The position numbers were made by a program, and so were the translations under genes. Positions 7,923 through 49,719 of a stretch of 52,505 nt of DNA are shown piece by piece; the stretch's first letter is position 1; every line of letters starts with the position of its first letter. The stretch covers positions 1 to 52,505 of the forward strand of contig JAGYNU010000002.1 of assembly GCA_018399975.1 (NCBI GenBank), in the 5' to 3' direction. Below the pieces are notes generated by a model. The model saw only the letters and a list, made by a program, of their open reading frames with translations. It did no database searches and was not told the DNA's origin. The DNA comes from Candidatus Omnitrophota bacterium (GTDB lineage Bacteria; Omnitrophota; Gorgyraeia; M55B152).

Positions 7923-8185
7923 GTCCTATGTCCTAGGTCCTATGTCCTAGGTCCTATGTCTTGCTACTTGCTACTTGCTACTTGTTACTTGTTACTTGCT
8001 ACTTGTTACTTGCTACTTGTTACTTGTTACCTGTTACCTGTTACCTGTAACCTGTAGCTTGTAGCTTGTTTTTCGTCATTCGTCATTCGCCTGCCTGCCG
8101 GCAGGCAGGGATTTCGTCATTTGTTTGTTACTTGTTACTTGTTACCTGTTACCTGTAACCTGTAGCTTGCAGCTTGTAGCTTGTA
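7922..8185. repeat. Phase-locked tandem heptamer arrays (TGTCCTA > CTACTTG > TTACCTG > TAGCTTG), split by TCGTCAT words and a palindrome
   Basis: 21 consecutive in-phase 7-mers at 7922-8068. A second array lies at 8123-8185. The region ends 10 nt before the stop codon at 8196. Confidence 0.9.
8090..8109. repeat. 20-bp perfect palindrome CCTGCCTGCCGGCAGGCAGG
   Basis: A second full copy lies at 17124-17143. Left-half copies lie at 17075-17088 and 27907-27920. It is absent from otherwise identical flanks at 28190-28200 and 41955-41965. Confidence 0.9.
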
Positions 8186-8195
8186 TACTCTGTTT

Positions 8196-16208: not shown

Positions 16209-16246
16209 ACGAATTTCCTCCCAATAAAAATTCTAAAAAATAATGA

Positions 16247-16469
16247 AACCCCACGGAGCAAACCCTGTGAAATATACTTTTGTATTTCACGGGGCAAGCC
16301 CGTGATACCTTTATGTACCCGTCTTCGCCAAACACTTATTGCGTTTGGCTTCGCCGAGGTTATCCGCCAACATATTCAGGTGGCTCCTTCATTTGGTGAT
16401 ATCTCGCCGAAGCATAACTTTCGCATTCATCCATGGGTAAACCCGTGGTTTTCTGCGAAGGCGGATAAA
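16247..16469. repeat. 223-bp multi-hairpin interspersed element, copy B (between rpsM and rpsK)
   Basis: Same length and orientation as copy A with scattered substitutions. It ends 6 nt from the rpsM stop at 16476. Confidence 0.9.
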
Positions 16470-16475
16470 TTATAA

Positions 16476-16853
16476 CTACTTCTTTTTACCCTTTTTAGAA
16501 CCAACAGTACGTTTGGGCCCTTTACGTGTTCTAGCATTAGTTTGAGTCTGTTGCCCACGCACAGGAAGCCCTTTTATATGCCTTAGTCCTCTATAAGACC
16601 TTATATCCTTTAATCTACGTATATTCTCTTGTGTTTCTCTTTTTAAATCGCCTTCAATTTTATAATCCTTTTGTATAACCGCAGTAATTCGAGAAACTTC
16701 TTGGTCATCTAATTTATCTGCCAATTTTCGAAAATCTATATTGGCTTTCTTTAATATATCTCTTGCTGCATTCTTACCAAGACCGTAAATATAGGTCAAA
16801 GCAATTTCTATATGCTTATCTTTAGGCACATCAACACCTGCTATTCTAGGCAT
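16476..16853 (-). CDS. rpsM: 30S ribosomal protein S13
   Basis: N-terminus [32 protein letters not shown] 7 nt upstream. Confidence 0.95.
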
Positions 16854-16868
16854 TACTTACTCCTTTTT

Positions 16869-16945
16869 TAATGAGAACATAACTTAGCGAACAAAGTGAA
16901 GCTAAGTTATTTGTTCGAATTAAATCCGCCATTTTTTGTGGCGGA
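16869..16945. repeat. Leader hairpin module (TAATGAG - bulged 12-14-bp hairpin - GAATTAAATCCGCC-loop-GGCGGA), copy at the rpsM 5' region
   Basis: Stem GAACATAACTTAGC / GCTAAGTTAT(TT)GTTC. The same architecture with different stems is found at 22645-22716, 41211-41288, 41299-41381 and 45544-45597. Confidence 0.8.
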
Positions 16946-17088
16946 GGCTATCTACTTCGTTTGTTTTTTAGATCAATTAGGTCAATCAGACTTCAGACAA
17001 CAGAGAACAGACAACAGATATCAAACTTCGTATCACAGAATTATGCATTTGCTTGTTTCGTCATCCATCATTCGCCTGCCTGCCGGCA

Positions 17089-17229
17089 AACACAGATTAT
17101 CACAGATTTTTAAAAGCTACACACCTGCCTGCCGGCAGGCAGGGATTATCACAGATTAATGATCAAGATACAATTATTTAATATTCAAACTAATACTTTT
17201 ATTTGGTTATTGTAATTTGTCATTCTCAT
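17089..17229. repeat. ~125-bp conserved repeat core, copy II (carries the 20-bp palindrome at 17124-17143)
   Basis: Aligns to copies I and III, except that an internal segment is replaced by GCTACACA plus the palindrome. Confidence 0.85.
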
Positions 17230-17420
17230 GTCCTATGTCCTATGTCCTATGTCCTAGGTCCTATGTCCTATGTCCTACTATGTCCTAGGTCCTATGTCTT
17301 GTTACTTGTTACTTGTTACTTGTTACCTGCTACCTGTTACCTGCGACTTGTAGCTTGTAGCCTGTAGCCTGTAGCCTGTAACTTGTAGCCTGCAACTTGC
17401 AGCCTGTAGCTTGTAGCTTG
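17229..17420. repeat. Tandem heptamer array, 27 units with one 3-nt slip
   Basis: Direct reading. It has the same order of word families as 7922-8068 and 28050-28178. It ends 2 nt from the rpmJ stop codon. Confidence 0.9.
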
Positions 17421-17422
17421 TT

Positions 17423-22622: not shown

Positions 22623-22644
22623 CCCTATTTCTCCTTTAATGTTC

Positions 22645-22716
22645 AATGAGGTCATAATTTACGGAATTTTGTCGTAAATTATATGACCAAATTAATCCGC
22701 CAATTTTTATGGCGGA
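22645..22716. repeat. Leader hairpin module, copy at the rplF 5' region
   Basis: AATGAG, then stem GGTCATAATTTACG / CGTAAATTAT(AT)GACC, then AAATTAATCCGCC-loop-GGCGGA. Confidence 0.8.
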
Positions 22717-27003: not shown

Positions 27004-27828
27004 TTATTTTCTTCTCTTCACAATGTATTTATCAGAATATCTCTTCTTTTTACGAGTTTTTAACCCTTTAGTAATTTTGCCCCAAGGAGTAGTTGGATGT
27101 CTTCCTCCAGACGATTTTCCTTCGCCTCCTCCCATAGGATGGTCTATAGGATTTTTAGCAACTCCTCTCGTAGAAGGCCTTCGTCCTTTATACCTGGAAG
27201 CTCCAGCTTTTCCCTTAGATATCATTCTATATTCCGCATTACCTACTTCACCTACAGTAGCATAACAATCTAAACTAACTTTTCTAATTTCCCCCGAAGG
27301 TAATCTTACATGTGCAAAATCACCTTCCTTGGCCATTATCGTAGCATAAGCTCCTGCAGACTTAACAGCTTTACCTCCCTGTTTTTTTAAAAACTCTAAA
27401 TTATGTATAGGAGTCCCTGAAGGTATACGTCTTAAAGGTAAAGAATTCCCAATCTCAAGAGAAACATTTTCTCCGCTAACTACTTTATCCCCAGTTTTTA
27501 AACCTTTAGGCTGAATAATATATCTTTTTTCACCATCCTTATATTTCAACAGTGCAATGTGGCTTGAACGATTAGGATCATATTCAATAGCTATAACTTC
27601 AGCTTCCATATCATACTTATCTCTTTTATAATCTATTATACGGATTTTCCGTTTATGTCCACCACCTCTATGGTGCACTGTAATATGGCCATATCCATCA
27701 CGACCATCTATTCTCTTTTTTGATATTGTCAAAGACTTTTCAGGTTTCTTCTTTGTAATCTCACTAAAATTTGAAGAACTTTTAAATCTGCTACCAGATG
27801 TTGTCGGTTTATATTTTTTAATTCCCAT
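27004..27828 (-). CDS. rplB: 50S ribosomal protein L2
   Basis: Motifs HHRGGGHKR and [12 protein letters not shown]. Confidence 0.95.
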
Positions 27829-27920
27829 TTTATCTCACTTTGTTTGATAGAACACAGATTAAAGTTTACAGATTACAATAAAAGACTTTCTAATATCTGT
27901 CTTCCGCCTGCCTGCCGGCA

Positions 27921-28050
27921 AACACAGATTATCACAGATTTTTAAAACACCACACAAGACTAGCACAGATTAATGATCAAGATACAATTATTTAATATTC
28001 AAACTAATACTTTTGTTTGGTTATTGTAATTTGTTATTTGTCATTCTCAT
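27921..28050. repeat. ~125-bp conserved repeat core, copy III
   Basis: Aligns to copies I and II. It is preceded by the half-palindrome at 27907-27920. Confidence 0.9.
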
Positions 28051-28384
28051 GTTCTAGGTCCTATGTCCTAGGTCCTAGGTCCTATGTCCTATGTCTTGCT
28101 ACTTGTTACTTGTTACCTGTTACCTGCTACTTGCAGCCTGCAGTTTGTAGCTTGCAGCCTGCAGCTTGTAGCTTGCAATTCGTCATTCGTCATTCTGATT
28201 TCGTCATTTGTTTGTAACTTGCAATTTGCAATTTGTTTGTAATTTGTTATTTGTCATTTGTAATTTACTTGTATCTTGTATCTTGTATCTTGTTACTTGT
28301 ATCTTGCCTGCCCCGTAGCACCCGCAGGGTTGGTACGGAGTTTTCTGTTTTCTGTTTTCTGTCTTCTGTTTTCTGTTTTCTGTC
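28050..28384. repeat. Heptamer arrays (TGTCCTA > CTACTTG > TTACCTG > CAGCCTG > TCGTCAT words > TGCAATT/TGTAATT/TGTATCT), one GC hairpin (28311-28340), then a TTCTGTT array abutting the rplW stop
   Basis: The 7-nt period is readable over more than 250 nt. This is the spacer between rplW and rplB. Confidence 0.9.
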
Positions 28385-28669
28385 TTATGTTACATCTATA
28401 GTATGTCCTTTTTCTAAAGTTACTATTGCCTTTTTCCAATCTCGTCTTTTTCCTTCTTTAAAACGCACTCTTCTCTTTTTGCCATACATATTTATAGTAT
28501 TAACATTTTTCACTTTAACAGAATATATTTTTTCGACAGCTTCCTTTACCTGTATTTTATTAGCAAATTTCTGGATAACAAAAAGGTATTGATTGTCCTG
28601 TAGCATTCGAGTCCCCTTCTCAGTTCTCATCATGCTAAATAAAATATCATAACAATCTTCTTTCTTCAT
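28385..28669 (-). CDS. rplW: 50S ribosomal protein L23
   Basis: Motifs TEKGTRMLQDNQYLFVIQKFANK and WKKAIVTL. Confidence 0.95.
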   Translation of the reverse strand: MKKEDCYDILFSMMRTEKGTRMLQDNQYLFVIQKFANKIQVKEAVEKIYSVKVKNVNTINMYGKKRRVRFKEGKRRDWKKAIVTLEKGHTIDVT

Positions 28670-33436: not shown

Positions 33437-36400
33437 TTATTTATCATTTACTGTTTCTTTTTCTTGCTCATTATTAGAATCTTTCTGTTTTTCAATTTCT
33501 CCTATTAACGAAGAAACATCTTTCTTTACCTTAATTTCACGATTTTGCCTAAATCCTGTCCCTGCAGGAATTAAATGTCCCATTATAACATTTTCTTTAA
33601 GTCCATACAAGTTATCAGTTTTACCACTTGCAGCTGCATCCGTTAAAACTCTTGTTGTTTCCTGAAAACTAGCTGCAGATATAAAACTTTCTGTAGTCAA
33701 AGACGCTTTGGTAATTCCTAATAATAAAGGAGACGCGCTAGCCGGTTTCCCCTTATTTTCTCTAACTTTTTGATTTTCTTCTTTAAAACAAAATTTATCG
33801 ATATGTTGTCCAGGTAAAAAATCAGTATCTCCAGGGTCTTCTATCTTAACCTTTCTAAGCATTTGTTTTATAATTAACTCAATATGTTTATCATTTATTT
33901 TAACACCTTGTAATCTATAAACTTCTTGAACTTGATCTAATAAATATTTCTGCAATTCTTTTTCACCGCGTATGTTAAGGATATCATCAGGAACTATTGG
34001 ACCATCGGTTAAACGGTCCCCACTTGAAACCTTATCGCCTTTATATACATTTAAATGTTTTCCATGTGGAACCAAATACTCCTTTTTCATTCCAGAAGGC
34101 GATTGAATTATAACCCTTCTTTGCCCACGTTTAGCACTACCAAATTCCACTACACCATCGATTTCACTAATTACTGCGGGGTTTTTTGGCTTTCGGGCTT
34201 CAAACAGTTCTGCAACCCTTGGTAATCCTCCTGTAATATCTCTAGTTTTGGTAACTTTTCTAGGAGTTTTTGCCAAGATAGTCCCAGCTTTAACTTTTTG
34301 ATTTTCCTTTACTGCGATATGAGCTCCAGCTGGTAATGGATAAATAGCCACAACATTATTCTTTTTATCCAAAATTAATATCTGCGGATGGAAATCCACA
34401 GAATGTTCTATAATAACTTGTCCAGTTATACCTGTAGCCTCATCAATTTCTCTATGAGAGGTCTTACCATCAACAATATCCTCAAATTCTATCTTACCTT
34501 CTACTTCTGTTAGTATAGGAGACGAATAAGGATCCCATTCTACAAACTTATCACCTTTTTGAACTTTATCTGACTCTTTTACATTTAAAAATGCACCTTG
34601 TGGAATAACATGTCGTTCTAATTCAATGCCTTCTTCATCATTTATACTAATTTGAGAATTTCGATTAAGAACTATAAACTTTTTCTTTGAAACAGAAACT
34701 ATTCTTAATCCATGAAATACTATTTTCCCATCATGCTTAGATTCTATAAAAGATTGCTCCACAATTCTACTAGCAGTTCCTCCAATATGAAAAGTTCTCA
34801 TAGTTAACTGAGTACCAGGCTCTCCAATTGACTGAGCAGCAATTACACCTACAGCCTCTCCTGCTTCTACAAGACGACCATTTGATAAACTAGTACCATA
34901 ACATTTCGAACAAACGCCCCTTGAAGCTTCACAGGTTAGAACACTTCTAATTTTTATTTTTTCGATACCTAATTCCTGAATCCTATTTGCTTTCTTCTCT
35001 GTTATAACTTCACCCGATTTTACTATTACTTCATCTGAAACAACATCAACTATGTTATCAGCAGCAACTCTACCTACAATTCTTTCCTTTAAACTTACTA
35101 CTATTTCATCACCTTCCACGATGGCTTCTACATAAATGCCATTTAAAGTGCCGCAATCTTCCTCAGTAACAATAACATCTTGTGCAACATCGACTAAACG
35201 TCTTGTTAAATAACCTGAGTCAGCTGTTTTTAAAGCCGTATCAGCTAATCCTTTTCTACCCCCATGAGATGAAATAAAATATTCTAATGAAGTTAATCCC
35301 TCTCTAAAACTCGAAATAACAGGACTTTCTATAATTTCTCCTGAAGGTTTAGCCATTAAACCTCTCATACCTACTAATTGTCGAATTTGTTGTTTAGAAC
35401 CCCTTGCTCCTGAATCAGCCATCATAAATAAAGGATTAAATTTATCTAAATGTTTAAAAACTGAATCGGAAACCTGTTCTGTAACATGAGTCCATATATC
35501 TACTATTTTATTATAACGCTCCCCTGCCGTTATTATCCCTTGCTCGTAAGATTTCTCAACTTCGCCAACTTTTTTATAAGCTTCCGTTACAAGTTCTTCT
35601 TTATCTTCTGGAATAACTAAATCACTAATAGACAAAGAAGCTCCTGAATAAGTAGCTTCTTTAAAACCTTTTTCTTTAACTTTATCCAATAATTTAACAA
35701 CCGCATCATATCCAAATTCTTCATAACAGTTTTTTATTACATCAGATAAAGCTGATTTATTTAACAATTTGTTAACAAAATTCATTTCTTTAGGCAAAAT
35801 ATCATTAAAAAGTACTTTACCAACAGTTGTTTCAATTAATTCAGAATTTATTCTTACTTTTATACTTGCATGCATATGTACTGCTCCATCTTCATATGCA
35901 GAAATGACTTCAGCAGTGTTAGAAAACATTTTACCTTCGCCTTTAACACCTTTTCTCATCTTCGTAAGATAATACAAACCAAGCACTATATCCTGCGTTG
36001 GAGAAACAATCGGACCTCCATGAGCAGGAGAAAATATGTTGTTACTGGATAACATCATTAATCTGGCTTCCATTTTAGCTTCAGCAGATAAAGGAACATG
36101 TACAGCCATTTGGTCACCATCAAAATCTGCATTAAAAGGCGTGCAAACCAATGGATGCACTTTTATAGCTTTACCTTCTACTAAAATAGGCTGAAATGCT
36201 TGTATTCCTAATCTATGTAAAGTAGGTGCACGATTCAATAATACTGGATGCCCCTTAATAACCTCATCTAATATATCCCATACTTCTACTTCTGTACGTT
36301 CTACCATTTTCCGAGCGCTTTTAATAGTATGGACATGCCCTCTCTTCTTTAATTCCTTTATAATAAAAGGCTCAAATAATTCTAAAGCAATTCTTTTTGG

Positions 36401-39400
36401 CAAACCACATTGATGCAATTGCAATTCCGGCCCAATGACTATAACGCTCCTACCAGAATAATCTACTCTTTTACCTAATAGATTTTGTCTAAATCTACCT
36501 TGTTTACCTTTAAGCATTTCACTTAAAGATTTTAGAGGCCTATTACCTGCCCCCATAACGGGACGGCCATGTCTTCCATTATCAAACAAAGCATCAACAG
36601 CTTCCTGTAACATCCTTTTTTCATTTCTAATTATTATCTCAGGAGCATTAAGTTCCATTAATTTCTTTAGGCGGTTATTTCTATTAATCACTCTTCTATA
36701 CAAATCATTTAAATCACTAGTAGCAAATCTCCCTCCATCTAAAGGAACTAAAGGCCTTAAATCCGGAGGGATAACAGGAATAACGTCCATAACCATCCAA
36801 GATGGTTCATTCCCTGACTTTTTAAAAGATTCTACAATTCTTAATCTTTTCAATACTTTTTTTCTAACTTGTTTACCACGTTTTCTCTTAGCTTTACTAT
36901 GCAAATCAGTTGCTAATTCATTTAAATCTAAATTCCCCAACAATTCTCTTATAGCTTCTGCTCCCATTTTAGCAGTAAAGCTTTTACTATATTTAGCCTT
37001 TGCCTCTCTATATTTGTTTTCTGATAATAAATCTCCTGTTTTAAAAGGACTATCTCCCGGGTCTATTACACAATACTCCTCGTAATAAATAACCCGTTCT
37101 AATTGTCTCATACTCATGCCTAATAAAGCTCCCATTCTAGAAGGCATAGTCTTAAAAAACCATATATGAGAAACAGGAGAAGCAAGTTCTATATGCCCCA
37201 TCCTTTTCCTTCTGACATCAGATGTGGTAACTTCAACCCCGCATCTGTCGCATATTATCCCTTTATTTTTTATTCTCTTATATTTTCCACAATAACATTC
37301 CCAGTCTTTGGTAGGACCAAAAATCCTTTCGCAAAATAAGCCTCCTTTTTCTGTTTTTAATGTTCTATAATTAATAGTTTCTGGTTTTGTTACTTCACCA
37401 TGAGACCAAGATCGAATCACATCAGAAGAAGCTATATTTATACGTATAGAATTAAAATCACCATCTTTTGATATAGAATCTTTGTCAAAATCTTGCTCTG
37501 TACGAATATCTAAAGCCAAACCCATAAGTTCTTTAATCAATACATTAAAAGATTCAGGTGTCCCTGTTTGCAAAGAACAATCGCCTTTTACAATATTCTC
37601 GTATATACGAGTGCGTCCTTTAACATCATCACTCTTAACTGTCAATAACTCCTGTAACATATAAGCAGCACCATAAGCTTCAAGTGCCCATACCTCCATT
37701 TCCCCGAATCTCTGCCCTCCGTATTGAGCTCTACCTCCTAAAGGCTGCTGTGTAACCAAAGAATAAGGGCCAATAGAACGAGCATGAATCTTTTCATCAG
37801 CTAAATGTATTAACTTCAATACATACATATAACCAACGGTTATTTTCTGGTCAAAAGGCTGTCCTGTTAAACCATCATAAAGTATAATTCTTCCATCTTC
37901 TGGCAACCCAGCCTTTCTTAACAATTCTTTTATTTCTTCTTCATTAATACCTCCAAAAACAGGCGTAGCTACATATTTATTTAATATCTCAGCTGCCCAT
38001 CCTAAATGAGTTTCTAAAACCTGTCCTATATTCATACGCGAAGGAACCCCTAACGGATTTAAAACCATATCAACTGGAGTTCCATCTGGTAAAAATGGCA
38101 TATCTTCTTCAGGCAATATTCTGGCAACAACCCCCTTATTGCCATGTCTACCAGCCATTTTATCTCCCACAGACAGCTTTCGTTTACTTGCTATATAAAC
38201 AACCACCCGTTTTATAACCCCTGGTGGTAATTCATCTGCTTTTTTCACCTTATCTATTTGTCTTTCTTGTTCATAAGTCAAATCATCTATTTGATCATTA
38301 AATAATCTTAAAACTTTCTCGATTTCTTCATTTATATCATCATTTTTTAATTCAATTTCATCTACATCACAATTGACTAATTTTTTAATATCAGTTTTAG
38401 TTATTTTCTTTCCCTTTTCAATAATAGGCTTACCTGTATTAATATCAAGTAAATCAGCAGCTAATGTATGGCCTTCTATTATTTCCCCTACTCTACTAAT
38501 TTTCCCCTTTAAAATATCATCAATTTTACCTTGATATTCTTCTTCAATTTCTTTTATACGAGCTCTTTCTTTAGACCTTTGAGATTTAGTGCGAGCAGGC
38601 TCCTTTCTGGAAAAAACTTTTGTATCTATAACGATACCTTCTACACCAGAAGGAACTTTTAAAGAAGCATCGCGTATATCTCCAGCTTTTTCGCCAAAAA
38701 TAGCTCTTAACAATTTTTCTTCTGGAGTAAGTTCTGTCTCCACCTTAGGAGTAATTTTCCCTACCAAAACATCTCCTGACTCTACTTTAGCTCCTACCCT
38801 AATAATCCCATCTTCATGTAAATCTTTTAAAGCTTCTTCTCCTACATTAGGAATATCTCTAGTAATCTCCTCTGCCCCTAATCTAGTATCTCTAGCTTCA
38901 ATCTCAAATTCTTCAATATGAACAGAAGTATAAACATCATCTTTAACTAACCGTGAACTAACTAAAATAGCATCTTCAAAATTATGTCCATGCCAAGACA
39001 TAAAAGCTACTAAAACATTTTTACCTAAAGCAATTTCTCCTTCTTTTGTAGCAGGTCCATCTGCTAATATATCTCCTTTTTTTACCTTAGCCCCAATAGA
39101 TGTCACTGACCTTTGATTAATACAAGTATTGGCATTAGAACGTTTAAATTTTTTTAGTTTATAATCTGTAGAACCAACTGTTATAGTACTACCATCTATA
39201 TAATTTACATTACCAGAATTTTTAGCTATAATTAAAGCTCCTGAATCTCTTCCAACTTTTTCCTCCATGCCGGTTCCAACCAATGGTGGTTCAGGAAATA
39301 ATAACGGAACAGCTTGACGTTGCATATTAGCTCCCATAAGAGCACGGTTTGTATCATCATGTTCTAAAAAAGGAATCAAACTGGCATCAACGCTAACAAT

Positions 39401-41194
39401 CTGTCTGGGAGAAACATCTATATAATCTATTTCTTTAGGAGATACACTAATAACATCCTGTTTATACCTACATTTTACTTGTTTATCCAAAAATTTTCCC
39501 TTATTATCTAACCTTGCATTGGCTTGAGCTATAATTTTGTTATCTTCTATATCAGCAGTTAAATACTCAACCTTTTTTGTAACTATACCTTTTTCAACCT
39601 TTCTATAAGGAGATTCCAAAAAACCCAATCTGTTAACTTTAGAAAATGTAGTTAAAGTTGTAATTAAACCAATATTAGGGCCTTCTGGAGTTTCAATAGG
39701 ACAAATCCTTCCATAATGCGAATGGTGAACATCACGGACTTCAAAACCAGCTCTTTCTCGGCTTAACCCCCCTGGGCCTAATGCACTAAGTCTACGTTTA
39801 TGTGTAGTCTCAGCTAAAGGATTAGTCTGATCCATAAATTGTGACAATCTACCTCTACCAAAAAAATCTCTAATTACCGATGATACTAACTTTGTATTAA
39901 CCAAGTTTTGAGGCATCATAGTCTCAGTATCATATATATTCATTCTCTCCCTAGCAGAACGAGCTACTCTCGCTAAACCTACCTGTATTTGATTAGCTAA
40001 AAGTTCGCCAACTGTCCTTATTCTCCTATTACCTAAATGGTCAATATCATCTACTTCTCCCTCTCCTCTTCTTAAATTCAAAAGATATTTTACAGCTTCA
40101 ATTATTACTTTTTTATCTAATTCTCTTTTATCATCAGAAAAATTTGTATTAAATTTTCGATTAATAATAAACCATCCAACTTTGCTCATATCATACCTTT
40201 TGGAGTCAAAAAACATTCTATTTAACAAAGATTTGGCATTTTCTTCAGTAGGAGGGTCTCCTGGGCGAAGCTTTCTATACAATGCCAACAAGGCTTCTGT
40301 TTGATTTTTGGTATTATCTTTCTCAAAGGAATTTCTAATTTCAACAAAATCATTACTAACTAATTTTATTTGCTTAACTTTTACATTTTTTAACTTGTTT
40401 CTAATCAACTTATTGGTAATTTTAGTTAATGCCGGAACAACTATCTTCTCCTTCTTTTCACCATTTTTATCCTCTAATATTGTTTCTTTAATAGGTTCTG
40501 CAAGCACTTTATCTAAATATTTTTTCCATTGTGAACTCCTCTTTATACTTACATTTTCTATTCCGCATATCTCTTTTAAAATATCTTGATCAGTCGAATA
40601 CCCAAGAGCACGCAAAAATGTAGTAAAAACAAATTTACGCCTTCTATCAATATAAACATTTAATCTATTTGATTTATCAAATTCAAATTCTATCCATCCG
40701 CCTCTATAAGGTATAATACGAGCAGAAAATATACTTTTCCCTCTAATTCTAGTTGTTTCACCAAATGACACTCCAGGAGATCTATGTAATTGATTAACAA
40801 CGACTCTATCATCGCCATTTATAATAAAATTACCTTCTTCGGTCATTAATGGCAAATCTCCAAAATAAACTTCTTGTTCTTTAATTTCTTTATCAGAACG
40901 TAATCTTATTTTTGCTTTTAAAGCACCTGCATAAGAAAAACTTCTTTCCCTAGCTTCTTCTTCACTATATTTAGACCTATCTATAGTGTAACTAATAAAT
41001 TCTAAAATATATTTACCATCAAAACTCTCTATGGGAAAAATATATTCAAAAATAGCCTGTAAACTTTTATTTTCCCTTTTCGTTTTAGGAACATCAAACT
41101 GTAAAAAATCCTCATATGACTCCACCTGAGTTGCAACTAAATTTGGCAAGCTAAAAACTTCTTTTGTTTTACCAAAATTTAGTCTTGTAATCAT
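33437..41194 (-). CDS. rpoBC: Fused DNA-directed RNA polymerase beta-beta' subunit (2585 aa)
   Basis: One uninterrupted 7758-nt ORF. Residues 1 to ~1234 carry beta motifs ([27 protein letters not shown]). Residues from ~1247 carry beta' motifs (zinc [14 protein letters not shown], catalytic [12 protein letters not shown]). The linker [12 protein letters not shown] is encoded at ~37455-37495. AAGGAGAGG SD precedes ATG 41194. Confidence 0.9.
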
Positions 41195-41210
41195 AATTAA
41201 TCCTCTCCTT

Positions 41211-41511
41211 TAATGAGACCATGATTTACACGACTATAAGGAGTGTAAATCATATGGTCGAATTAAATCCGCCAATGTTTGTGGCGGATATAGCCCACTA
41301 ATGAACACATGATTTAGAGAGTTCAAGCGAATCTAAATCATATGTGTGAATTGAATCCGCCGTAGCTTTAGCGTAGGCGGAAGTTCATAATTTACGGAAA
41401 TCCTGTCCGCCAATGTTTGTGACGAAAGCATATAACTTAGCGAATCCTTCGATTTTACTCAGGATAAACAAAGTGAAGCTAAGTTATATGACCGAATTTT
41501 ACCCGCCAAAG
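41211..41511. repeat. Four tandem leader hairpin modules (two full, one truncated, one long-loop) in the rplL-rpoBC spacer
   Basis: Module positions are 41211-41288, 41299-41381, 41385-41428 and 41429-41511. Each has a bulged hairpin with its own stem sequence plus a CCGCC-loop-GGCGG hairpin. Confidence 0.8.
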
Positions 41512-41712
41512 CTAAGCACGAAAAAAAGTAGATTAGCGTAGGCGAAAAACACTGAACCCTTTTAGGGTGAAGTGTCAAAAGATATATAAAACCAAAGATA
41601 CTTCGCTTTCCAAGCTCAGTATCCCTACCCGCCAATGTTTATGGCTGGAATCCCCACGTTTAGATTTCAAAAAAAAACTGTGTTTCTATGTTCTATGTCT
41701 GTTTTCTGTTTA

Positions 41713-41812
41713 CCCCATAGCATCCGAAGGATTGGTATAGGGTTATCTGCCATGAACCAGAGCAAAGCACGGTTCATGGTAACCCTAAACCGTACTACGT
41801 TCTGGTTTAGGG
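41713..41812. repeat. Cluster of three GC-rich hairpin modules
   Basis: 41713-41742 is a two-level hairpin, paralog 28311-28340. 41750-41779 is CCATGAACC/GGTTCATGG, paralog ~50192-50229. 41783-41812 is CCCTAAACC-GTACTACGTTCT-GGTTTAGGG, paralog 50229-50264. Confidence 0.8.
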
Positions 41813-41839
41813 CTGTTTTCTGTCTTCTGTTTACTTCGT

Positions 41840-42056
41840 AAACCACAGATTATCACAGATTTCTAAAACCACACAAGATTAGCACAGAAATTGAAACCTG
41901 CAGCCTGAAGTTTGCAGCATGTAGCTTGAAGCTTGCAGCTTGTTTCTTTTCGTCATTCGGATTTCGTCATTTGTCATTTGTTTTCTTTCTGTTTTCTGCC
42001 TGCCCCGTGAAATCTTATTTCTACGGGGTTATCTGTCTTCTGTCTTCTGAATAAAC
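41840..42056. repeat. Partial core, TGCAGC-type heptamers, TCGTCAT words, hairpin CCCCGT-N14-ACGGGG (42003-42028) and TCTGTCT units abutting the rplL stop
   Basis: Direct reading. The hairpin recurs as its exact reverse complement at 49998-50023. Confidence 0.85.
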
Positions 42057-42728
42057 TTACTTTAATTCTACTTTAGCACCTACGCTTTCAAGTTTAGATT
42101 TAACTTCTTCTGCTTCTTCTTTAGAAACTTGTTCTTTAATTGGTTTTGGTACAGATTCTACTAAATCTTTAGCTTCTTTAAGTCCTAAAGTAGTTATAGT
42201 TCTTATTTCTTTTATGACCTGAATCTTTTGCGAGCCCACCTCAGATAAAATTACATCAAAAATATCTTTTTCTTCTTCTTTTTCTGATTCAGCAACTCCT
42301 GTAGCACTTCCAGCGGCTGCCGGAGCTACTGCTGGGATAGCACTAACACCAAACTTTTTTTCTAATACTTTAACTAAATTGGAAAGTTCTATAACATTCA
42401 TTTTTTCAATAGAATTAACAATTTTTTCCATGTTTTCAGACATATCTATGTTTTCTTCTTCTACTTCTTGTTGAGTGTCATCTTTTTTCTCTTTTTCTGT
42501 GGTTTCAGCTTTTTTATCTTTTTTGGTATCAGATTCTTTTTTATCTGATTCTTTAATATTCTTATCCTCTTCTTTCTTACCTTTATCATCGATAGAGGAA
42601 TCTTTATCTTGTTTTTCGGTAGATTTCTTTGTTTTATCTGACACTTTTTCCTCTTTTTTCTTTTTTAGTTCTTTATCTTCGTTTTCTTTTGCTTTTTGCA
42701 CTTGTTTTGTTTCTTTTTCTTCAGCCAT
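42057..42728 (-). CDS. rplL: 50S ribosomal protein L7/L12 with ~95-aa Lys/Glu/Asp-rich N-terminal extension (223 aa)
   Basis: A canonical L12 sequence occupies the last ~128 aa ([29 protein letters not shown] ... [10 protein letters not shown] ... GAKVELK). A perfect AAAGGAGG SD precedes ATG 42728. No SD precedes the internal ATG 42443. Confidence 0.9.
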
Positions 42729-43990: not shown

Positions 43991-44153
43991 ACTGGTTTCT
44001 GGTTACTGGTTTCTGGTTTCTGGTTACTGGTTTCTGGTTACTGGTTACTGGTTTCTGGTTACTGGTTACTGGTTACTGGTTTCTGATTTCTGGTTTCTGG
44101 TTACTGGTTACTGGTTTCTGGTTTCTGGTTTCTGATTTCTGGTTTCTGGTTTC
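43991..44153. repeat. Tandem heptamer array ACTGGTT/TCTGGTT/TCTGATT (~23 units)
   Basis: Direct reading. It fills the whole rplK-rplA spacer and encodes the last 26 codons and the stop codon of the rplK ORF. Confidence 0.95.
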
Positions 44154-44585
44154 TATTATTTCTACCCCCATACTTCTAGCAGTTCCTTTAACTGTTTTAA
44201 TAGCAGATTCTAAATCTACCGCGTTTAAATCTTCCATTTTTTCCTTTGCTATCTTTTCTACCTGATTTTTAGTTAAACTGGCAACTTTTTCTTTATTAGG
44301 AACTCCAGAAGCTTTTGCTATACCACATTCTTTTTTTATCAAAACAGGGGTAGGAGGATTCTTAACTACAAAAGAAAAACTCCTATCTGCATAAATTTCT
44401 AATACAACAGGTAAAGTTAAACCCGGCCTATCTTTAGTTTGTTCATTGAATTGTTTGCAAAAATCCATTATTTTTACACCATATTGGCCTAAAGCAGGAC
44501 CAACAGGCGGCGCAGGATTCGCTTGCCCCCCTGGACAATAGAGCTTAAGTTTAGCCATTATTTTCTTTTTTTTCTTTTTAGCCAT
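44073..44585 (-). CDS. rplK: 50S ribosomal protein L11 with 26-aa repeat-encoded C-terminal tail
   Basis: Motifs [14 protein letters not shown] and [12 protein letters not shown], then [25 protein letters not shown] read from the heptamer array. Confidence 0.93.
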
Positions 44586-44692
44586 TTTATCTCACTCCGT
44601 TCGATAGAGTACAGATTACAGTTTACAGAAAACAGAATTCTATATTACACTAAATCCCAGGATTTTTTTATTTTTCTGTTATCTGTTATCTG

Positions 44693-45223
44693 TTAAATTT
44701 TTTCTACCTGCCAATATTCTAATTCCACAGGAGTAGACCTACCAAAAATCGATACAGAAACTCTTAATTTACCCTTTTCAGGTTCAATTTCTTCGATAGA
44801 ACCTGTAAAATTAGTAAATGGCCCATCTTTTATCCTAACTCCTTCTCCTGTTTCAAATTCTACTTTTGGGGTAGGTTTTTCTTTTTTCTCTTCTGTCTTT
44901 TTTAATATACCCTTAACTTCCTCTTCCTTTATTGAAACAGGACCTGCTCCATAGCCAACAAAACCTGTAACCCCAGGAATTCCTTTTATCAAATACCAAG
45001 TTTTCTCATCCATTTCTATGTTAACTAAAATATACCCTGGGAAAAATCTTCTTTCTGAAATTTTTTTCTCTCCATTTTTAACTTCAGATATTTTTTCTTT
45101 AGGAATAAAAACTTCCGAAATCTTATCTTCTATTTTATTTTGCTTAAATTTCTTTTCAATATGTGCTTTAACTTTTTCTTCTTGTCCTGTTAAAACATGT
45201 ATAATATACCATTTTTTTTCCAT
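44693..45223 (-). CDS. nusG: Transcription termination/antitermination factor NusG
   Basis: NGN domain WYIIHVLTGQEEKV and KOW GEGVRIKDGPFTNFTG. Its stop codon lies inside a TCTGTTA x3 array (44675-44695). Confidence 0.95.
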   Translation of the reverse strand: MEKKWYIIHVLTGQEEKVKAHIEKKFKQNKIEDKISEVFIPKEKISEVKNGEKKISERRFFPGYILVNIEMDEKTWYLIKGIPGVTGFVGYGAGPVSIKEEEVKGILKKTEEKKEKPTPKVEFETGEGVRIKDGPFTNFTGSIEEIEPEKGKLRVSVSIFGRSTPVELEYWQVEKI

Positions 45224-45466: not shown

Positions 45467-45541
45467 CAGGTGAGGCAGGACTTGAACCCGCAACCGTCGG
45501 ATTTGGAATCCGATGCTCTAGCCAAATTGAGCTACTCACCT
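45467..45541 (-). tRNA. trnW: tRNA-Trp (anticodon CCA)
   Basis: The reverse complement folds as a cloverleaf: acceptor AGGTGAG/CTCACCT, anticodon arm TCGGA-TTCCAAA-TCCGA, T-loop GGTTCAAGTCC. No encoded 3' CCA. Canonical position before secE. Confidence 0.9.
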
Positions 45542-45543
45542 TT

Positions 45544-45597
45544 TAATGAGTACATCATTTAGCAAATCTAAATAAAGCTAAATGATATGCACGAATT
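45544..45597. repeat. Leader hairpin module abutting the 5' end of tRNA-Trp
   Basis: TAATGAG, then stem GTACATCATTTAGC / GCTAAATGAT(AT)GCAC, then GAATT. It lacks the CCGCC hairpin. Confidence 0.75.
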
Positions 45598-45642
45598 TTA
45601 CTCACTACCTAATTTTCTTGATTTTTAGACAATTAAAAATAA

Positions 45643-45830
45643 AACCCCACGGGGCAAGCCCTGTGGTACCTTTATGTACCCGTCTTCGCCAAACACTTAT
45701 TGTGTTTGGCTTCGCCGAGGTTATCCGCCAACACATTTAGGTAGCTCTTTCATTTGGTAACATCTCGCCGAAGCATAACTTTCGCATTCATCCATGGGTA
45801 AACCCGTGGTTTTCTGCGAAGGCAGATAAA
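45643..45830. repeat. Multi-hairpin interspersed element, copy C (188 bp, internal 35-bp deletion)
   Basis: Collinear with copies A and B, but lacks the segment between the two CACGGGGCAAGCCC direct repeats. Confidence 0.9.
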
Positions 45831-45894
45831 ATTAGGTGCTAAGTTAATTAAACTAAAGACTTAAGTTTCTCACCATACTACCTAAATATAAGTT

Positions 45895-46159: not shown

Positions 46160-46202
46160 AACCCCACGGGTAAACCCGTGGTTTTCTGCGAAGGCGGATA
46201 AA
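46160..46202. repeat. Multi-hairpin interspersed element, mini copy D (43 bp)
   Basis: The left end AACCCCACGGG is joined directly to the right end TAAACCCGTGGTTTTCTGCGAAGGCGGATAAA. It abuts the tuf stop codon (46203) with zero spacing. Confidence 0.85.
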
Positions 46203-47405
46203 TTATTCTATTATCTCAGATATTACGCCAGCACCTACTGTTTTTCCACCTTCTCTTATAGCAAATCTGAGTTCTTTTTCCATAGCTATAGGTTCAATTA
46301 ATTCAGCATCTACATCAACATTATCCCCTGGCATAACCATCTCAACTGATTCAGGCAATTTCACTACACCAGTAACATCCGTAGTTCTAAAATAAAACTG
46401 AGGCCTATATCCATTAAAAAAAGGAGTATGCCTACCTCCTTCTTCTTTGCTTAATACATAAACTTTTGCTTTAAATTTAGTATGAGGGGTAATACTTCCA
46501 GGAGCTGCGATAACTTGACCTCTTTGTAATTCATCTTTTTCTACTCCTCTTAAAAGAATTCCTACATTATCTCCCGCTTGTCCATAATCTAAAGTTTTCT
46601 TAAACATTTCTACTCCGGTAACAACAGTTTTTCTAGGTTTATCCATTAATCCAACAACTTCAATTTCCTCTCCAACTTTCACTTTACCTCTTTCGACACG
46701 ACCGGTTCCAACTGTTCCCCTCCCGGTAATAGAAAAAACATCTTCTACTGCCATTAAAAATGGTTCATCAACACTACGTTTAGGTTCTGGAACATAATCG
46801 TCAATAGCTTTTACAAGTTCAACTATAGGACCGCATTTATCACAATCCTCTTTTCCACAACCACATTCCATAGCCTGAAGAGCACTCCCTTTTATAACTG
46901 GAGCATTGTCGCCATCAAATTCATATTTACTTAAAAGTTCTCTAACTTCTAATTCAACCAATTCCAATAATTCCTCATCATCTACTTGGTCAATTTTATT
47001 TAAAAATACTAATATAGCAGGAACTCCAACTTGGCGTGCCAATAATATATGTTCTCTCGTCTGAGGCATTGGCCCATCTGCAGCACTTACCACTAAAATA
47101 GCTCCATCCATCTGTGCGGCTCCAGTAATCATATTCTTAATATAATCAGCATGACCCGGACAATCTACATGAGCATAATGTCTTTTTTCAGTTTCATATT
47201 CTACATGGGCTATGGCTATGGTAATACCTCTTTCTCTTTCTTCAGGAGCTTTGTCAATCGAATCAAATGATCTTACCTCTGCAAAACCCTGCTTAGATAA
47301 AACCTCTGTCATAGCAGAAGTTAAAGTAGTTTTCCCATGGTCTACATGTCCAATCGTTCCGATATTTAAATGAGGTTTAGTCCTTTCATATCTTTCCTTT
47401 GCCAT
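46203..47405 (-). CDS. tuf: Elongation factor Tu
   Basis: Motifs [17 protein letters not shown] and NKID. AAGGGAGG SD upstream. Confidence 0.97.
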
Positions 47406-47620: not shown

Positions 47621-47648
47621 ATTATAAAATAAAAAATATATTTGTCAA
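47621..47648 (-). promoter_or_regulatory. Consensus sigma70-type promoter for tRNA-Thr-tuf
   Basis: On the minus strand, TTGACA (47648-47643) is followed by a 16-nt spacer and TATAAT (47626-47621). An A-rich tract lies upstream. The site is ~60 nt upstream of the tRNA-Thr 5' end. Confidence 0.6.
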
Positions 47649-47676: not shown

Positions 47677-49719
47677 TCATTTTTCCTTTTGTTTTTTTGA
47701 CTCCATTATAACTTTTTCAGCCAAATTAGATGGTATTTGCTCATAATGTGAAAATTTCATTGAAAAAGTTCCCCTACCACCGGTTATCGACTTTAACTCA
47801 GAAGCATATTTAAGCATTTCACTTAAAGGCACTTTTGCATTTATAACCTGCGTTAAACCTTTAGCTTCCATACCCATTATGCGCCCACGCCTAGAATTCA
47901 AATCTTTATTTATTTGTCCCATAAAATCTTCCGCAACCATAATATTAACATCCATAATAGGCTCCAATAAAACTGGCTTTGCCTTTTTTACTCCATCTTT
48001 TAATGCCATGGCACCTGCAATCTGAAATGCCATATCAGAAGAATCTACACTATGATATGAACCATCATACAAAACAGCTTTAAAATCTACCAATGGATAA
48101 CCAGCAACAACTCCCTCTTGCATAGCATTTCTTACACCTTTTTCTACTGAAGGAATATATTGCCTTGGGATAGCTCCTCCAGTAATACTATCTTCAAACT
48201 CAAAACCTTTTCCTCTTTCTAAAGGAACTAATCTTAAGCACACATCACCATACTGTCCATGGCCACCTGATTGTTTTTTATATTTATGTTGAATTTCCAC
48301 TGTAGACATTATAGTCTCTTTATAAGGAACTTTGGGAGTTCCTAATTTTACATTTACTTTAAATCTTTGTTTTAATTTACTTGCAGTTATTTCAAGATGC
48401 AAATTCCCCATACCTGAAATCAATAATTCTTTAGTTTGTGAATCTCTTGAAACTTTAAAAGTCTTATCTTCTTTTGTTATCTTTTTTAAGGACTGTGAAA
48501 TCTTCTTTTCATCTTCGCGAGACTCTGGAGTAATAGAATAAGATAATACAGGTTCAGGAAATTTTATCTCTGGAAAAACTATTTCTTTTGAACCATCACA
48601 AAAAGTATCAGATACATCGGTATCCTTTAACTTTGCAACCGCTACAATACTTCCAGCAATAGCAGTCTCTAAAGGTTTTTGCTCTTTACCCTGTAGCAAA
48701 TACAACTGGCCTAATTTTTCCACTGAAGATTTATTGATATTTTTAACTTGAGAATTAGAATTTACCTTACCAGACAAAACTCTAAATATTGAAAGTTGGC
48801 CTATATAAGGATCTATCTGTGTTTTAAAAACCCTTGCATAAAAATCAAAATCTTCTTTATGCTCGATATCAACTTTTTCTAATTCCTCACTATCTGTATC
48901 TTTTTTAACAAAAGCTTGGCTTGCCTTAACTTCACTTGGAGATGGTAAAAATTGAATCATATACTCGGTAAACTTATTTATACAACTTTTATTACCTGCA
49001 GAACCAGAAAATATTGGAATTATCTTGTTTTCTGAAACTGCTTTTTTCAATCCTATAGTCAATTGTTGTGTTGTTAATTCTCCCTTTTCTAAATATTCTT
49101 CTAATAAATCATCTTGAGTTTCAGCAATCGCCTCTATTAACTCTTCTCGTGCAGAAGATATATCTATATCTAAATTAGTTTTAATTTCATTATCAAATAG
49201 AGGTTGAGAATTATGATAATCCTTACCAACTCCATCTGGAATATTAAAAAGTATACAATTTTTACCAAAGTTCTTTTTGATTTCATCAACAATAACTGAA
49301 AAATTTATATTATCTAAATCAAGCTTATTAATAAAAATAAACCTGGGTAAATTCCTTTCCTTTAAAAAAGACCACATTTTCTCGGTACCTATTTCTACTC
49401 CGCTAGTAGCATCTACCAGAAGTATTGCAGAATCAACTGCTTCTAAGCTTGCGATAACTTCACCTATAAACTCTAAATATCCAGGCGTATCAATCAAATT
49501 AATAGTATAGTCATTTTGCGTAAAAGAAAAAATAGAAGAGTTAATAGATATTGCCCTTTCTTGCTCTTCTTGGGTATAATCGCTTACCGAAGTTCCTTCC
49601 TCGGCTTTCCCTAATCTGTCAACAATTCCAAAATTATAAGCCAACATATCAGTTAGCAAAGTTTTACCAGCTCCTGTATGAGAAACCAAAGCAATATTTT
49701 TAATTTTATCAACCATCAT
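47677..49719 (-). CDS. EF-G paralog (EF-G II-like translational GTPase, 680 aa)
   Basis: Five-domain EF-G architecture with divergent G motifs: VSHTGAGKT, DTPGYLEF (Tyr in place of the catalytic His) and NKLD. GGAGG SD upstream. Confidence 0.85.
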   Translation of the reverse strand: MMVDKIKNIALVSHTGAGKTLLTDMLAYNFGIVDRLGKAEEGTSVSDYTQEEQERAISINSSIFSFTQNDYTINLIDTPGYLEFIGEVIASLEAVDSAILLVDATSGVEIGTEKMWSFLKERNLPRFIFINKLDLDNINFSVIVDEIKKNFGKNCILFNIPDGVGKDYHNSQPLFDNEIKTNLDIDISSAREELIEAIAETQDDLLEEYLEKGELTTQQLTIGLKKAVSENKIIPIFSGSAGNKSCINKFTEYMIQFLPSPSEVKASQAFVKKDTDSEELEKVDIEHKEDFDFYARVFKTQIDPYIGQLSIFRVLSGKVNSNSQVKNINKSSVEKLGQLYLLQGKEQKPLETAIAGSIVAVAKLKDTDVSDTFCDGSKEIVFPEIKFPEPVLSYSITPESREDEKKISQSLKKITKEDKTFKVSRDSQTKELLISGMGNLHLEITASKLKQRFKVNVKLGTPKVPYKETIMSTVEIQHKYKKQSGGHGQYGDVCLRLVPLERGKGFEFEDSITGGAIPRQYIPSVEKGVRNAMQEGVVAGYPLVDFKAVLYDGSYHSVDSSDMAFQIAGAMALKDGVKKAKPVLLEPIMDVNIMVAEDFMGQINKDLNSRRGRIMGMEAKGLTQVINAKVPLSEMLKYASELKSITGGRGTFSMKFSHYEQIPSNLAEKVIMESKKQKEK

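Follow-up and report, generated by a model that had tools for sequence, protein, structure and literature searches.

Enlarged spacers in the translation operons of an Omnitrophota bacterium are filled with lineage-specific repeat DNA

We analysed a stretch of 52.5 kb (52,505 nucleotides of contig JAGYNU010000002.1, 32% GC; hereafter the window) from a Candidatus Omnitrophota bacterium, in which operons encoding ribosomal proteins are interrupted by long non-coding spacers, and we focused on the spacer of 556 bp between rplW and rplB. The enlarged, repeat-filled spacers that an initial annotation of this DNA had described are real. We put at roughly 60% the probability that they represent recent, lineage-specific accumulation of repeat DNA, either selfish or neutral, at formerly tight or overlapping junctions, with the repeats being co-transcribed and tolerated. 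In particular, close relatives lack these repeats, which argues for repeat invasion rather than for a conserved hidden gene or RNA. The features seen directly in the DNA are the anatomy of the spacers, the identity between repeat copies, their absence from relatives, their occurrence between non-ribosomal genes, a bias in their orientation and the TAA sequences that flank them.

The genes of the window lie nearly all on the minus strand and comprise tRNA-Thr-tuf-rpmG-tRNA-Trp-secE-nusG-rplKAJL, a fused rpoBC gene (2585 aa), rpsLG-fusA, and the S10, spc and alpha operons. The identities of the key genes (rplB, rplW, rplD, fused rpoBC, rplL, rplK, rpsM, rpsK, rplF and rpsH) were obtained with NCBIfam. 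The focal junction is made up as follows.

27004-27828 (-), rplB (NCBIfam)
27829-28384 (-), non-coding spacer between rplW and rplB, 556 bp
28385-28669 (-), rplW (NCBIfam)

The initial annotation had found no open reading frame (ORF) of at least 60 aa on the coding strand of this spacer, and this holds; stop codons occur throughout all three coding-strand (minus) frames. The only ORFs of at least 60 aa lie on the plus strand (28017-28217 and 28233-28592) and are translations of repeats. A hidden protein gene was rejected on these grounds, the sense frames being closed and the antisense ORFs being repeat-encoded and without a Pfam match, and a known RNA family was rejected too, as the spacer gave no Rfam match even at E<=5. 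Across the entire window only the two tRNAs passed the gathering threshold of Rfam 15. (Relaxed thresholds yielded noise and one weak match, the best below threshold, to Alpha_RBS; it scored 24.6 bits where 38 are required and lies at 16821-16915 on the minus strand, overlapping a hairpin of the repeat family described below as Family C and the rpsM start. This match is probably fortuitous because the same hairpin also precedes rpoBC, rplF and tRNA-Trp.) The lengths given earlier for the other enlarged spacers proved exact: 862 bp for rplL-rpoBC, 569 for rpmJ-rpsM, 353 for rpmG-tRNA-Trp, 267 for rpsM-rpsK, 259 for rpsH-rplF (measured with the true rplF start at 22622), 152 for tuf-rpmG and 85 for rplK-rplA. 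Equally correct were the tight junctions, namely a 4-nt overlap of rplC and rplD, a 26-nt overlap of rpmC and rpsQ, and 4 nt between rplE and rpsZ.

We compared the spacers at the same junctions in other genomes. Among 80 other bacterial genomes from many phyla, the rplW-rplB spacer is never longer than 141 nt and has a median length of 17 nt. No protein on record equals the rplB product of the window exactly; it is at most 64% identical to those of GTDB species representatives, and its best named protein matches are from Candidatus Omnitrophota. By protein search we obtained four nearer lineages with rplB 80, 78, 76 and 70% identical (L081/L206, L083/L207, L084/L208 and L086, respectively), in which the rplW-rplB spacer measures 153, 10, 112 and 102 nt, against 556 in the window. 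The other junctions compare as follows (in nt).

rplL-rpoBC: window 862; relatives 169 and 92
rpmJ-rpsM: window 569; relatives about 216 and 50
rpsM-rpsK: window 267; relative 38
rpsH-rplF: window 259; relatives 45, 35, 170 and 158
rplK-rplA: window +85; relatives -8, -14 and -14 (overlaps)

Both the set of enlarged junctions and the elements that fill them differ lineage by lineage; L083/L207 is compact nearly throughout, and L086 is enlarged by 70-170 nt at almost every junction. Such differences argue that the spacers are recent and lineage-specific rather than conserved genes or leaders. The possibility raised at the outset, that related genomes hold the same spacers as conserved protein genes or known RNAs, was not borne out, in that the spacer of the window gave no Rfam match, its antisense ORFs gave no Pfam match, and the spacers of the relatives differ.

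On the sense strand, read from rplW to rplB, the focal spacer consists largely of tandem heptamers, which were delimited with Tandem Repeats Finder (TRF).

28340-28391 (-), heptamer array AGAAAAC (ACAGAAA in CA phase) x7.4, beginning on the rplW stop codon (TRF)
28307-28339 (-), GC-rich hairpin CCGUACCAACCCUGCGGGUGCUACGG nested between arrays (-14.4 kcal/mol, z -0.95)
28268-28306 (-), array AAGATAC (ACAAGAT in CA phase) x5.6 (TRF)
28206-28266 (-), ACAAATN/GCAAATT units (TRF)
28178-28208 (-), array GACGAAT x4.4 (TRF)
28049-28177 (-), compound array: GCAAGCT/GCAGGCT, then GCAGGTA/ACAGGTA, then ACAAGTA, then GCAAGAC, then (AGGACMT)x6.7
27949-28048 (-), non-repetitive conserved tail of the compound element, common to 7836-7969 and 17144-17277
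27895-27947 (-), module with five AATCTGTG boxes, the extended -10-like motif TGTGATAAT and a GCCGGC palindrome
27829-27877 (-), start-proximal leader of rplB, about 50 nt, ...CTATCAAACAAAGTGAGATAAA-ATG (ending AAAGTGAGATAAA-ATG)

Hairpins related to the nested one, near 42020 and 50000, have fold z of about -4.3. The unit order of the compound array recurs at 7921-8185 and 17228-17421, and the copies of the tail (about 135 nt) are 82-93% identical overall (by blastn, 93% over 118 nt and 84% over 152 nt); no significant fold was found for the tail (z +0.27), and a 24-mer taken from it matched nothing in the metagenome collection. The motif AATCTGTR occurs 18 times in contrast to 4.1 expected, with 13 of the 18 in spacers. 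The rplB leader is 78% identical to the rplK leader (44586-44634) and is predicted to be unstructured (fold z +0.89), so that the ribosome-binding site of rplB should be accessible. The fold of the entire spacer surpasses that of shuffles (z -4.6) and pairs the ACAGAAA array at the 5' end with AUCUGUG boxes at the 3' end; note that this end-to-end duplex is only marginal (z -2.55, 3 of 200 shuffles).

Heptamer arrays recur across the window. The sense-strand units are concatenated copies of NCARRNN, and self-identity of at least 80% at a lag of 7 was found at 436 window positions versus 0-2 at each other lag from 2 to 12. CA-phased heptamer runs make up 31% of the six largest spacers, compared with 0.65% in shuffles and 0% in the rpoBC coding sequence. 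The TRF arrays run head-to-tail in 4-23 copies, and 955 of the 1098 period-7 bases lie outside genes, the remainder being mostly in a 3' extension of rplK. As described in the initial annotation, arrays begin within 0-10 nt of the stop codon of rplW, rpmJ, nusG, rplL and the lipoyl-domain gene. The principal further sites are the following.

16854-17422 (-), rpmJ-rpsM spacer: compound array, tail, short inverted array (16994-17018) and a Family C hairpin (16860-16929) before the Shine-Dalgarno (SD) sequence of rpsM
7761-8195 (-), non-ribosomal spacer between the lipoyl-domain gene and an AsnC-regulator gene: two tandem compound arrays and tail
41195-42056 (-), rplL-rpoBC spacer: short arrays, nested hairpins and a tail fragment (41841-41888)
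41411-41506, 41290-41360 and 41202-41272 (-), three tandem Family C hairpins within the rplL-rpoBC spacer
43992-44154 (-), array (AAACCAG/TAACCAG)x23 at the rplK-rplA junction (TRF)
44586-44692 (-), nusG-rplK spacer: TAACAGA array and inverted copy forming one long hairpin with the SD free (z -3.07)
49884-50300 (+), divergent region between the gene for a second elongation factor G (EF-G2) and an ftsA-like gene: heptamer arrays and nested hairpins

At least 10 unit types share a CA(R) core at fixed phase, and adjacent units are single 1-nt steps apart, which is the expected signature of slippage plus point mutation. Unit types follow the same order in three to four spacers, and unit counts differ between the homologous blocks of the three compound copies, as expected if copying was followed by slippage. 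Period-7 arrays were found in none of the 80 other genome loci, in no other Omnitrophota loci and nowhere in about 41 kb sampled of L083/L207; outside the window they occur only in the nearest relatives. In two sediment metagenomes the words of the focal array reach a depth of 96-234, compared with 0-15 for its flanks, which indicates that the same array types are present in many copies in that community. One contig from a sediment metagenome, a single contig, omits exactly 49 nt (7 units) of the focal array. (A generic scan of metagenomes for ACARRNN x4 was discarded as too unspecific, as it matched at least 118 viral contigs.)

Several observations concern individual arrays. The array at the rplK-rplA junction is 163 nt long, and the rplK ORF runs 26 codons into it, so that a C-terminal tail of 26 aa on L11 is encoded by heptamers (44073-44154, minus strand). 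In L208, L11 (1724-2209) ends DRNQKSENRNQKDGNS, a shorter version of the repeat-encoded tail, and the gene there still overlaps rplA. L086 has (GGTGTCA)n arrays followed by an inverted unit and TTGACA...TATAAT-like boxes at three S10/spc junctions (1901-1968, 2251-2352 and 7473-7560). Near 50,000, in a repeat-rich divergent region of 680 bp (about 49720-50400), gene orientation, GC skew (-0.22 to +0.31) and array strand flip together; this region may mark where replication starts or ends, or be no more than a stretch of divergent promoters, and the joint flip means that the window cannot separate replication from transcription as the cause of array orientation. In L206, a degenerate array-like, A-rich sequence of the plus strand (3631-3871) lies between the minus-strand genes ligT and cinA, and it is suggestive of an array orientation that follows the neighbouring ribosomal-protein cluster or the replichore and not the flanking genes.

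The initial annotation had attributed all of the spacers to one repeat vocabulary. Instead, they form a mosaic of at least three repeat families: a different element, Family B, is found in rpsM-rpsK, rpmG-tRNA-Trp and tuf-rpmG, whereas hairpin elements, and not heptamer arrays, occupy rpsH-rplF and most of rplL-rpoBC. The locations of the two further families are as follows.

16210-16469 (-), Family B in rpsM-rpsK, about 260 nt, GC-richer, RNA fold z -4.85
3830-4089, Family B between two non-ribosomal genes
45571-45830, Family B in rpmG-tRNA-Trp
46164-46206, Family B stub of 43 nt
22635-22701 (-), Family C hairpin before rplF (covariance model)
45535-45605, Family C copy ending at the 5' end of tRNA-Trp (covariance model)

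Copies of Family B are 94-98% identical (blastn), and the family has no match in Rfam and nothing similar in the loci of the relatives. (In Family B, UUAUCCGCC pairs over a long range with GGCGGAUAA; the element also contains several GC hairpins, and the hairpin at its 3' end resembles a terminator. Read on the antisense strand, the hairpin at its 5' end takes the form of a terminator, CCACGGGTAAACCCGTGG-TTTTCT.) Family C occurs at four junctions, before rpsM, rplF and tRNA-Trp, and in three tandem copies before rpoBC. Its layout is a small GC hairpin, ATTTAATTCG, a hairpin of about 16 bp with a conserved 2-nt bulge, and CTCATTAAA, followed directly by GGAG-ATG. The covariance model recovered six copies in the window, scoring 66.2 bits for the copy before rplF and 72.5 bits for the one at tRNA-Trp, and it also matched L081, L086 and the more distant Omnitrophota L008, L012 and L072, often as adjacent reverse and forward pairs. 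The alignment of Family C has 19 pairs, 10 of them with compensatory changes, and two of the copies have strong folds (z -5.6 and -3.5) that keep the SD unpaired.

Family C is the right half of a palindromic three-hairpin element of 131-243 nt. From left to right the element reads TAA, GTGAGGACATAAGTTATGGAG, hairpin H1, GTCCGAACTTACCC, hairpin H2, GGGTTAATTCGCAC, hairpin H3, CTCCRTAAGTTATGTGCTCAT and TAAA; its end sequence is TAAGTGAGGACATAAGTTATGG, a conserved (G/A)TGAG precedes the hairpins, and the ends form terminal inverted repeats of about 26 nt, in which the left TAAGTGAGGACATAAGTTATGGAG matches the reverse complement of the right CTCCRTAAGTTATGTGCTCATTAAA. It is small, multi-copy and without a conserved ORF. 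Both ends are flanked by TAA (sometimes TAG), the one on the left being the preceding gene's stop codon. In the consensus fold, three hairpins contain 35 pairs, and 23 of these show compensatory changes. Further copies are present in L008 (19836-20023), L012 (6654-6852), L072, L081, L086 and L206-L208 and in the metagenome loci L210-L287. When metagenomes were scanned with the pattern of the right half, 78 loci were recovered, of which 72 are distinct. An ORF starts between -1 and +25 nt past the 3' end of the element in about 56 of these 78 copies, in the form CTCATTAAATG or CTCATTAAAAGGAGG-N6-ATG, and in several others a terminator or promoter comes next. The coding strand agrees with the orientation of the element in a ratio of 46:6 downstream and 36:9 upstream. 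(Omnitrophota-like contigs sometimes carry two copies of the element 1.5-2.7 kb apart. The 3' end CTCATTAAA is seen fused to ATG or to AGGAGG-N6-ATG.) At rplB-rpsS, L086 reads TAA[136-nt element]TAAAT-ATG in place of ataaTTatg in L084. Filled and empty sites were also found among the lineages at rplF-rplR and infA-rpmJ, the lineages being too diverged for these pairs to prove precise duplication. In the distant relative L285, assembled metatranscriptome contigs tile a reversed copy of the element together with the genes on either side, consistent with co-transcription of the element, these contigs not showing transcript ends. The idea that small TAA-ATG ORFs in the element serve as a coupling relay was rejected, since the stop positions are inconsistent between copies. 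(Such copies, with ORFs of 27-45 codons, lie at L086 3178-3260 and 9043-9140 and at L206 12038-12190, the last called as a gene of 45 aa; they are probably spurious.) The element family is undescribed, absent from Rfam and abundant in Omnitrophota, and it has the hallmarks of a miniature inverted-repeat transposable element (MITE) or bacterial interspersed mosaic element (BIME) with TAA as its target, although its hairpins are conserved, and its orientation is biased, to an unusual degree.

Taken as repeat invasion, the spacers would have arisen in several steps. Palindromic, non-autonomous elements of mobile type, namely the Omnitrophota-wide three-hairpin MITE/BIME-like element and Family B of about 260 nt, would insert at TAA, very often that of the upstream gene's stop codon. 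The heptamer arrays would expand and contract through slipped-strand mispairing, and they appear to be copied between loci as a compound unit made up of ordered unit types and the tail of about 135 nt. Once in place, the inserts would be carried passively within polycistronic transcripts by read-through, as suggested by the long arrays lying in sense orientation relative to the genes around them and by the lack of any convincing terminator. Stop/start translational coupling would be lost and the downstream gene would initiate independently, with the repeat unit bringing or preserving a leader (the unstructured leader of about 70 nt in the case of rplB and rplK, and CTCATTAAA-GGAG-ATG in the case of Family C). 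Selection may then retain only those insertions that leave or provide a usable ribosome-binding region; this would explain both the strand bias and the exact abutment to stop and start codons.

Several findings weigh against repeat invasion. A Pfam scan of ten window ORFs outside the translation cluster revealed no transposase. Nor did the fetched loci yield an autonomous partner, as none of them has two ends framing an insert long enough for a transposase, whole genomes not having been searched. At rpmG-tRNA-Trp, the element is present in 4 of 4 lineages, even in the one that is compact elsewhere, and its end coincides exactly with the tRNA 5' end, which hints that there it is conserved rather than accidental, with a role in, for example, tRNA or mRNA processing. 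(The copies at this junction lie at 45535-45894 in the window, where Family B is inserted into the three-hairpin element, and at L206 8550-8660, L207 8580-8715 and L208 563-765.) Compensatory changes in 10 of 19 and 23 of 35 pairs are not needed by a neutral DDE-type MITE and suggest selection on the structure of RNA or single-stranded DNA. Finally, the conserved order of unit types could be functional syntax instead of shared descent.

The initial annotation had proposed that the repeats are selfish DNA tolerated in the most highly expressed loci, or that they supply signals there. The selfish, tolerated part of this proposal fits best, and the link to high expression is not supported. Within the window, intergenic DNA accounts for 11.9% of the translation cluster and 8.1% of the metabolic part, and spacers of at least 50 nt occupy 13 of 44 junctions in the former versus 5 of 14 in the latter. 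Copies of these elements also separate metabolic genes, at the junction of the lipoyl-domain and AsnC genes (7761-8195) and between a glycosyltransferase gene and its neighbour (3805-4094), and only 3 of 59 ORFs just downstream of metagenome elements match translation-cluster proteins of the window. These figures point to no preference for highly expressed operons, and the metabolic-gene copies argue that the repeats are not specific to them. With regard to signals, scans of the spacers against shuffles gave no excess of consensus promoters or terminators over chance. The compensatory changes in the hairpins, the co-orientation and the exact abutment on SD and start sequences would nevertheless be compatible with an exapted role in processing or stabilisation.

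An unlikely alternative, which we regard as a serious minority hypothesis because the hairpins are structurally conserved and positionally precise, is that the hairpin elements and the hairpins of arrays and inverted arrays serve as operon punctuation. They would be functional intercistronic RNA modules, either cut by enzymes of the RNase III, E or P type or acting as protective 5' or 3' stem-loops, such that operon transcripts become separately stabilised and separately translated units. The retention of pairing through compensatory changes, the strong folds of Family C that leave the SD free and the 46:6 orientation bias all favour such a role, as does the placement of the 3' end at start codons (about 56 of 78) and, in four lineages, at the 5' end of tRNA-Trp. 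In the relatives, short spacers consist of one long hairpin, in which an array pairs with its inverse (z -3.8 to -6.6), and in the focal spacer the 5' ACAGAAA array pairs with the 3' AUCUGUG boxes (z -2.55). There is also precedent, in that Correia/NEMIS elements are RNase III substrates and ERIC affects mRNA stability according to its orientation (PMC2229807). However, end-to-end pairing is not significant in most long spacers of the window, being marginal in rplW-rplB and nusG-rplK. Punctuation also fits poorly with the varying presence of the elements at orthologous junctions of close relatives, one of which is nearly all compact, and with the hallmarks of mobile DNA (inverted ends, TAA flanks and many near-identical copies). 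Moreover, it leaves unexplained the heptamer arrays in one orientation, about 350 nt, that make up the bulk of the focal spacer. A bolder form of the same idea, which we consider distinctly improbable, is that the three-hairpin elements and the array/inverted-array hairpins constitute a phylum-specific punctuation system of self-propagating RNA modules with a dedicated nuclease or RNA-binding protein. Here the modules would land on stop codons, and their folding would bring the upstream stop and the downstream start together.

The remaining explanations are less likely than punctuation. The chance is small that the conserved tail behind the compound array contains internal promoters driving rplB, rpsM and other downstream genes. 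The organism does use canonical sigma-70 signals, as indicated by a perfect promoter (TTGACA-16-TATAAT, 12 of 12) at 47621-47648 on the minus strand, upstream of tRNA-Thr/tuf. Moreover, three of the four tail copies hold TGTGATAAT, an extended -10-like motif, with TTGTGT or TTGTAT 16-18 nt before it, and L086 has TTGACA...TATAAT-like boxes behind its (GGTGTCA)n arrays at three junctions. Nevertheless, the match to the -35 element is poor (3 of 6), the copy between the lipoyl-domain and AsnC genes no longer has the motif (GCCAAT), and the boxes of L086 have variable spacing and fit promoters poorly. The focal region holds one weak site against 2.6 expected, and the other spacers show no excess.

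We give still less weight to the idea that the heptad arrays are DNA or RNA platforms for an oligomeric protein that regulates or insulates the operons. Proteins of this sort exist: the omega repressor of pSM19035 recognises heptad operators on DNA, and HutP binds NAG-N4 repeats on RNA. The strict 7-nt period with a fixed-phase CA(R) core in at least 10 unit types, the conserved order of unit types and the single orientation of the long arrays would suit such a protein, and a post-transcriptional role in binding has been proposed by MacGregor for TAACTGA heptamers, including some in ribosomal-protein operons (PMC4679880). However, the many units that differ by gradual 1-nt steps look like slippage and drift rather than a fixed site, copy numbers vary freely, and one array enters the rplK coding sequence. 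Arrays are also missing from the L083/L207 sample and from other Omnitrophota loci, and no candidate binding protein was identified.

Least probable of all is that the spacers were created or inflated by misassembly of short metagenome reads: arrays longer than a read together with dispersed copies of 82-96% identity are classical causes of collapse, expansion and chimeric joins, and one sediment contig omits 49 nt within the focal array, but gene order is canonical on both sides of each spacer, independent assemblies of relatives (JGI, Logan and an NCBI metagenome-assembled genome) hold the same kinds of element at the same kinds of junction, and the array sequences occur at high depth in independent metagenomes, so that the presence of the spacers is real and only their exact lengths are uncertain. 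Since the window is presumably a metagenome contig, the exact lengths of the arrays are less certain than their presence.

Some neighbouring genes of the window also deserve mention. The single rpoB-rpoC ORF of 2585 aa (33437-41194, minus strand) is a fusion common to L081/L206 and L083/L207 (2580 and 2579 aa). The rplL ORF of 223 aa (42057-42728, minus strand) has a Lys/Glu-rich N-terminal extension of about 95 aa without a Pfam match, the L7/L12 model covering only residues 96-223; the extension seems real and typical of the clade because the rplL products of the relatives have 195-201 aa. Directly upstream of tRNA-Thr-tuf lies the second EF-G paralogue, of 680 aa (47677-49719, minus strand), which is syntenic in the relatives (L206 4802-6841 and L207 4776-6833).

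The finding adds a variant of known bacterial repeats, one that combines arrays of the long simple-sequence repeat (LSSR) type with MITE/BIME-like elements. In the account of Mrazek (2007) given in PMC4679880, heptanucleotide units are the commonest class of LSSR in bacteria and are ascribed to polymerase slippage. The arrays of the window resemble LSSRs, the TAACTGA repeats described by MacGregor in 2015 from marine Beggiatoaceae, Cyanobacteria and Bacteroidetes (PMC4679880), and the cyanobacterial short tandemly repeated repetitive (STRR) sequences, in that all are direct intergenic tandems of 7 nt. As in the TAACTGA system (PMC4679880), arrays often lie just before start codons and inside ribosomal-protein operons, their phylogeny is sporadic and slippage is the proposed origin. 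No TAACTGA tandem occurs in the window; the nearest is TAACAGA x3 at 44675-44695, and the TAACAGA unit of nusG-rplK is 1 nt off TAACTGA. Unlike TAACTGA repeats or LSSRs, the window has at least 10 unit types in a recurring order, blocks of 180-350 nt, a unique tail, nested hairpins and dispersed compound behaviour, whereas the TAACTGA sets of BOGUAY have 2-6 copies of a single unit in a host of a different phylum.

In bacteria, MITEs usually lie between genes and are co-transcribed, and some of those such as Correia and ERIC have acquired effects that depend on RNase III or E (PMC2229807). The three-hairpin element is like the MITEs (Correia/NEMIS of Neisseria, ERIC/IRU of enterobacteria, and RUP and BOX of pneumococcus) in its length of about 100-250 nt, its inverted ends, its non-coding nature and its many intergenic copies. 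MITEs have short TA-containing target duplications, are co-transcribed and fold into long hairpins, and the element has TAA flanks and filled and empty sites. It differs from them in that each end forms a hairpin of its own, in which a 2x2 internal loop is conserved and compensatory changes preserve the pairing, in that insertion is nearly always between a stop codon and the next SD or start, with co-orientation of about 8:1, and in that a partner transposase is not known.

The repetitive extragenic palindromic (REP) and BIME sequences of E. coli and its relatives are mobilised by the REP-associated tyrosine transposase RAYT, which recognises a conserved tetranucleotide 5' of the hairpin, and they stabilise upstream mRNA and modulate expression inside operons. 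Like them, the element has hairpins that are imperfect palindromes with conserved bulges, arranged as inverted pairs about a central motif, and it is located in intercistronic or 3' regions of operons; unlike them, its hairpins are longer (about 22 bp) and have no similarity to REP sequences, no RAYT gene was seen, and the 3' end abuts the start codon instead of coming after the last gene. RNase III hairpins lie between cistrons in the early region of phage T7 and at rplL-rpoB of E. coli, which has an attenuator and an RNase III site, and an enlarged rplL-rpoB spacer is normal in many bacteria. The elements of the window are likewise long irregular stem-loops with internal loops before the next ribosome-binding site, cleavage in them being hypothetical. 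The rplL-rpoBC spacer of the window, in contrast, is 5-9 times longer than those of the relatives and is made of dispersed repeats instead of one unique, conserved leader.

Repeats of this kind break assemblies and bins of candidate-phylum genomes and give rise to spurious ORF calls, here of 66, 79 and 119 aa in the window and of 45 aa in L206. If the element system were a true punctuation system, then each cistron would get its own processed, hairpin-protected mRNA, and Omnitrophota would have swapped translational coupling for mobile, structure-encoded signals even in the S10, spc, alpha and rpoBC operons. Few gene arrays in bacteria are as conserved or as tightly packed as the ribosomal-protein operons, whose stoichiometry is thought to need translational coupling. 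In this lineage, 0.25-0.86 kb of rapidly evolving repeats are tolerated within the S10, spc, alpha, L11 and rplL-rpoBC units, and the element follows a placement rule that runs from stop codon to element to SD/ATG. The presence of an insert even at a junction that normally overlaps argues that coupling at these junctions is dispensable or replaceable, and the repeats thus provide natural material on how operons survive invasion by mobile elements.

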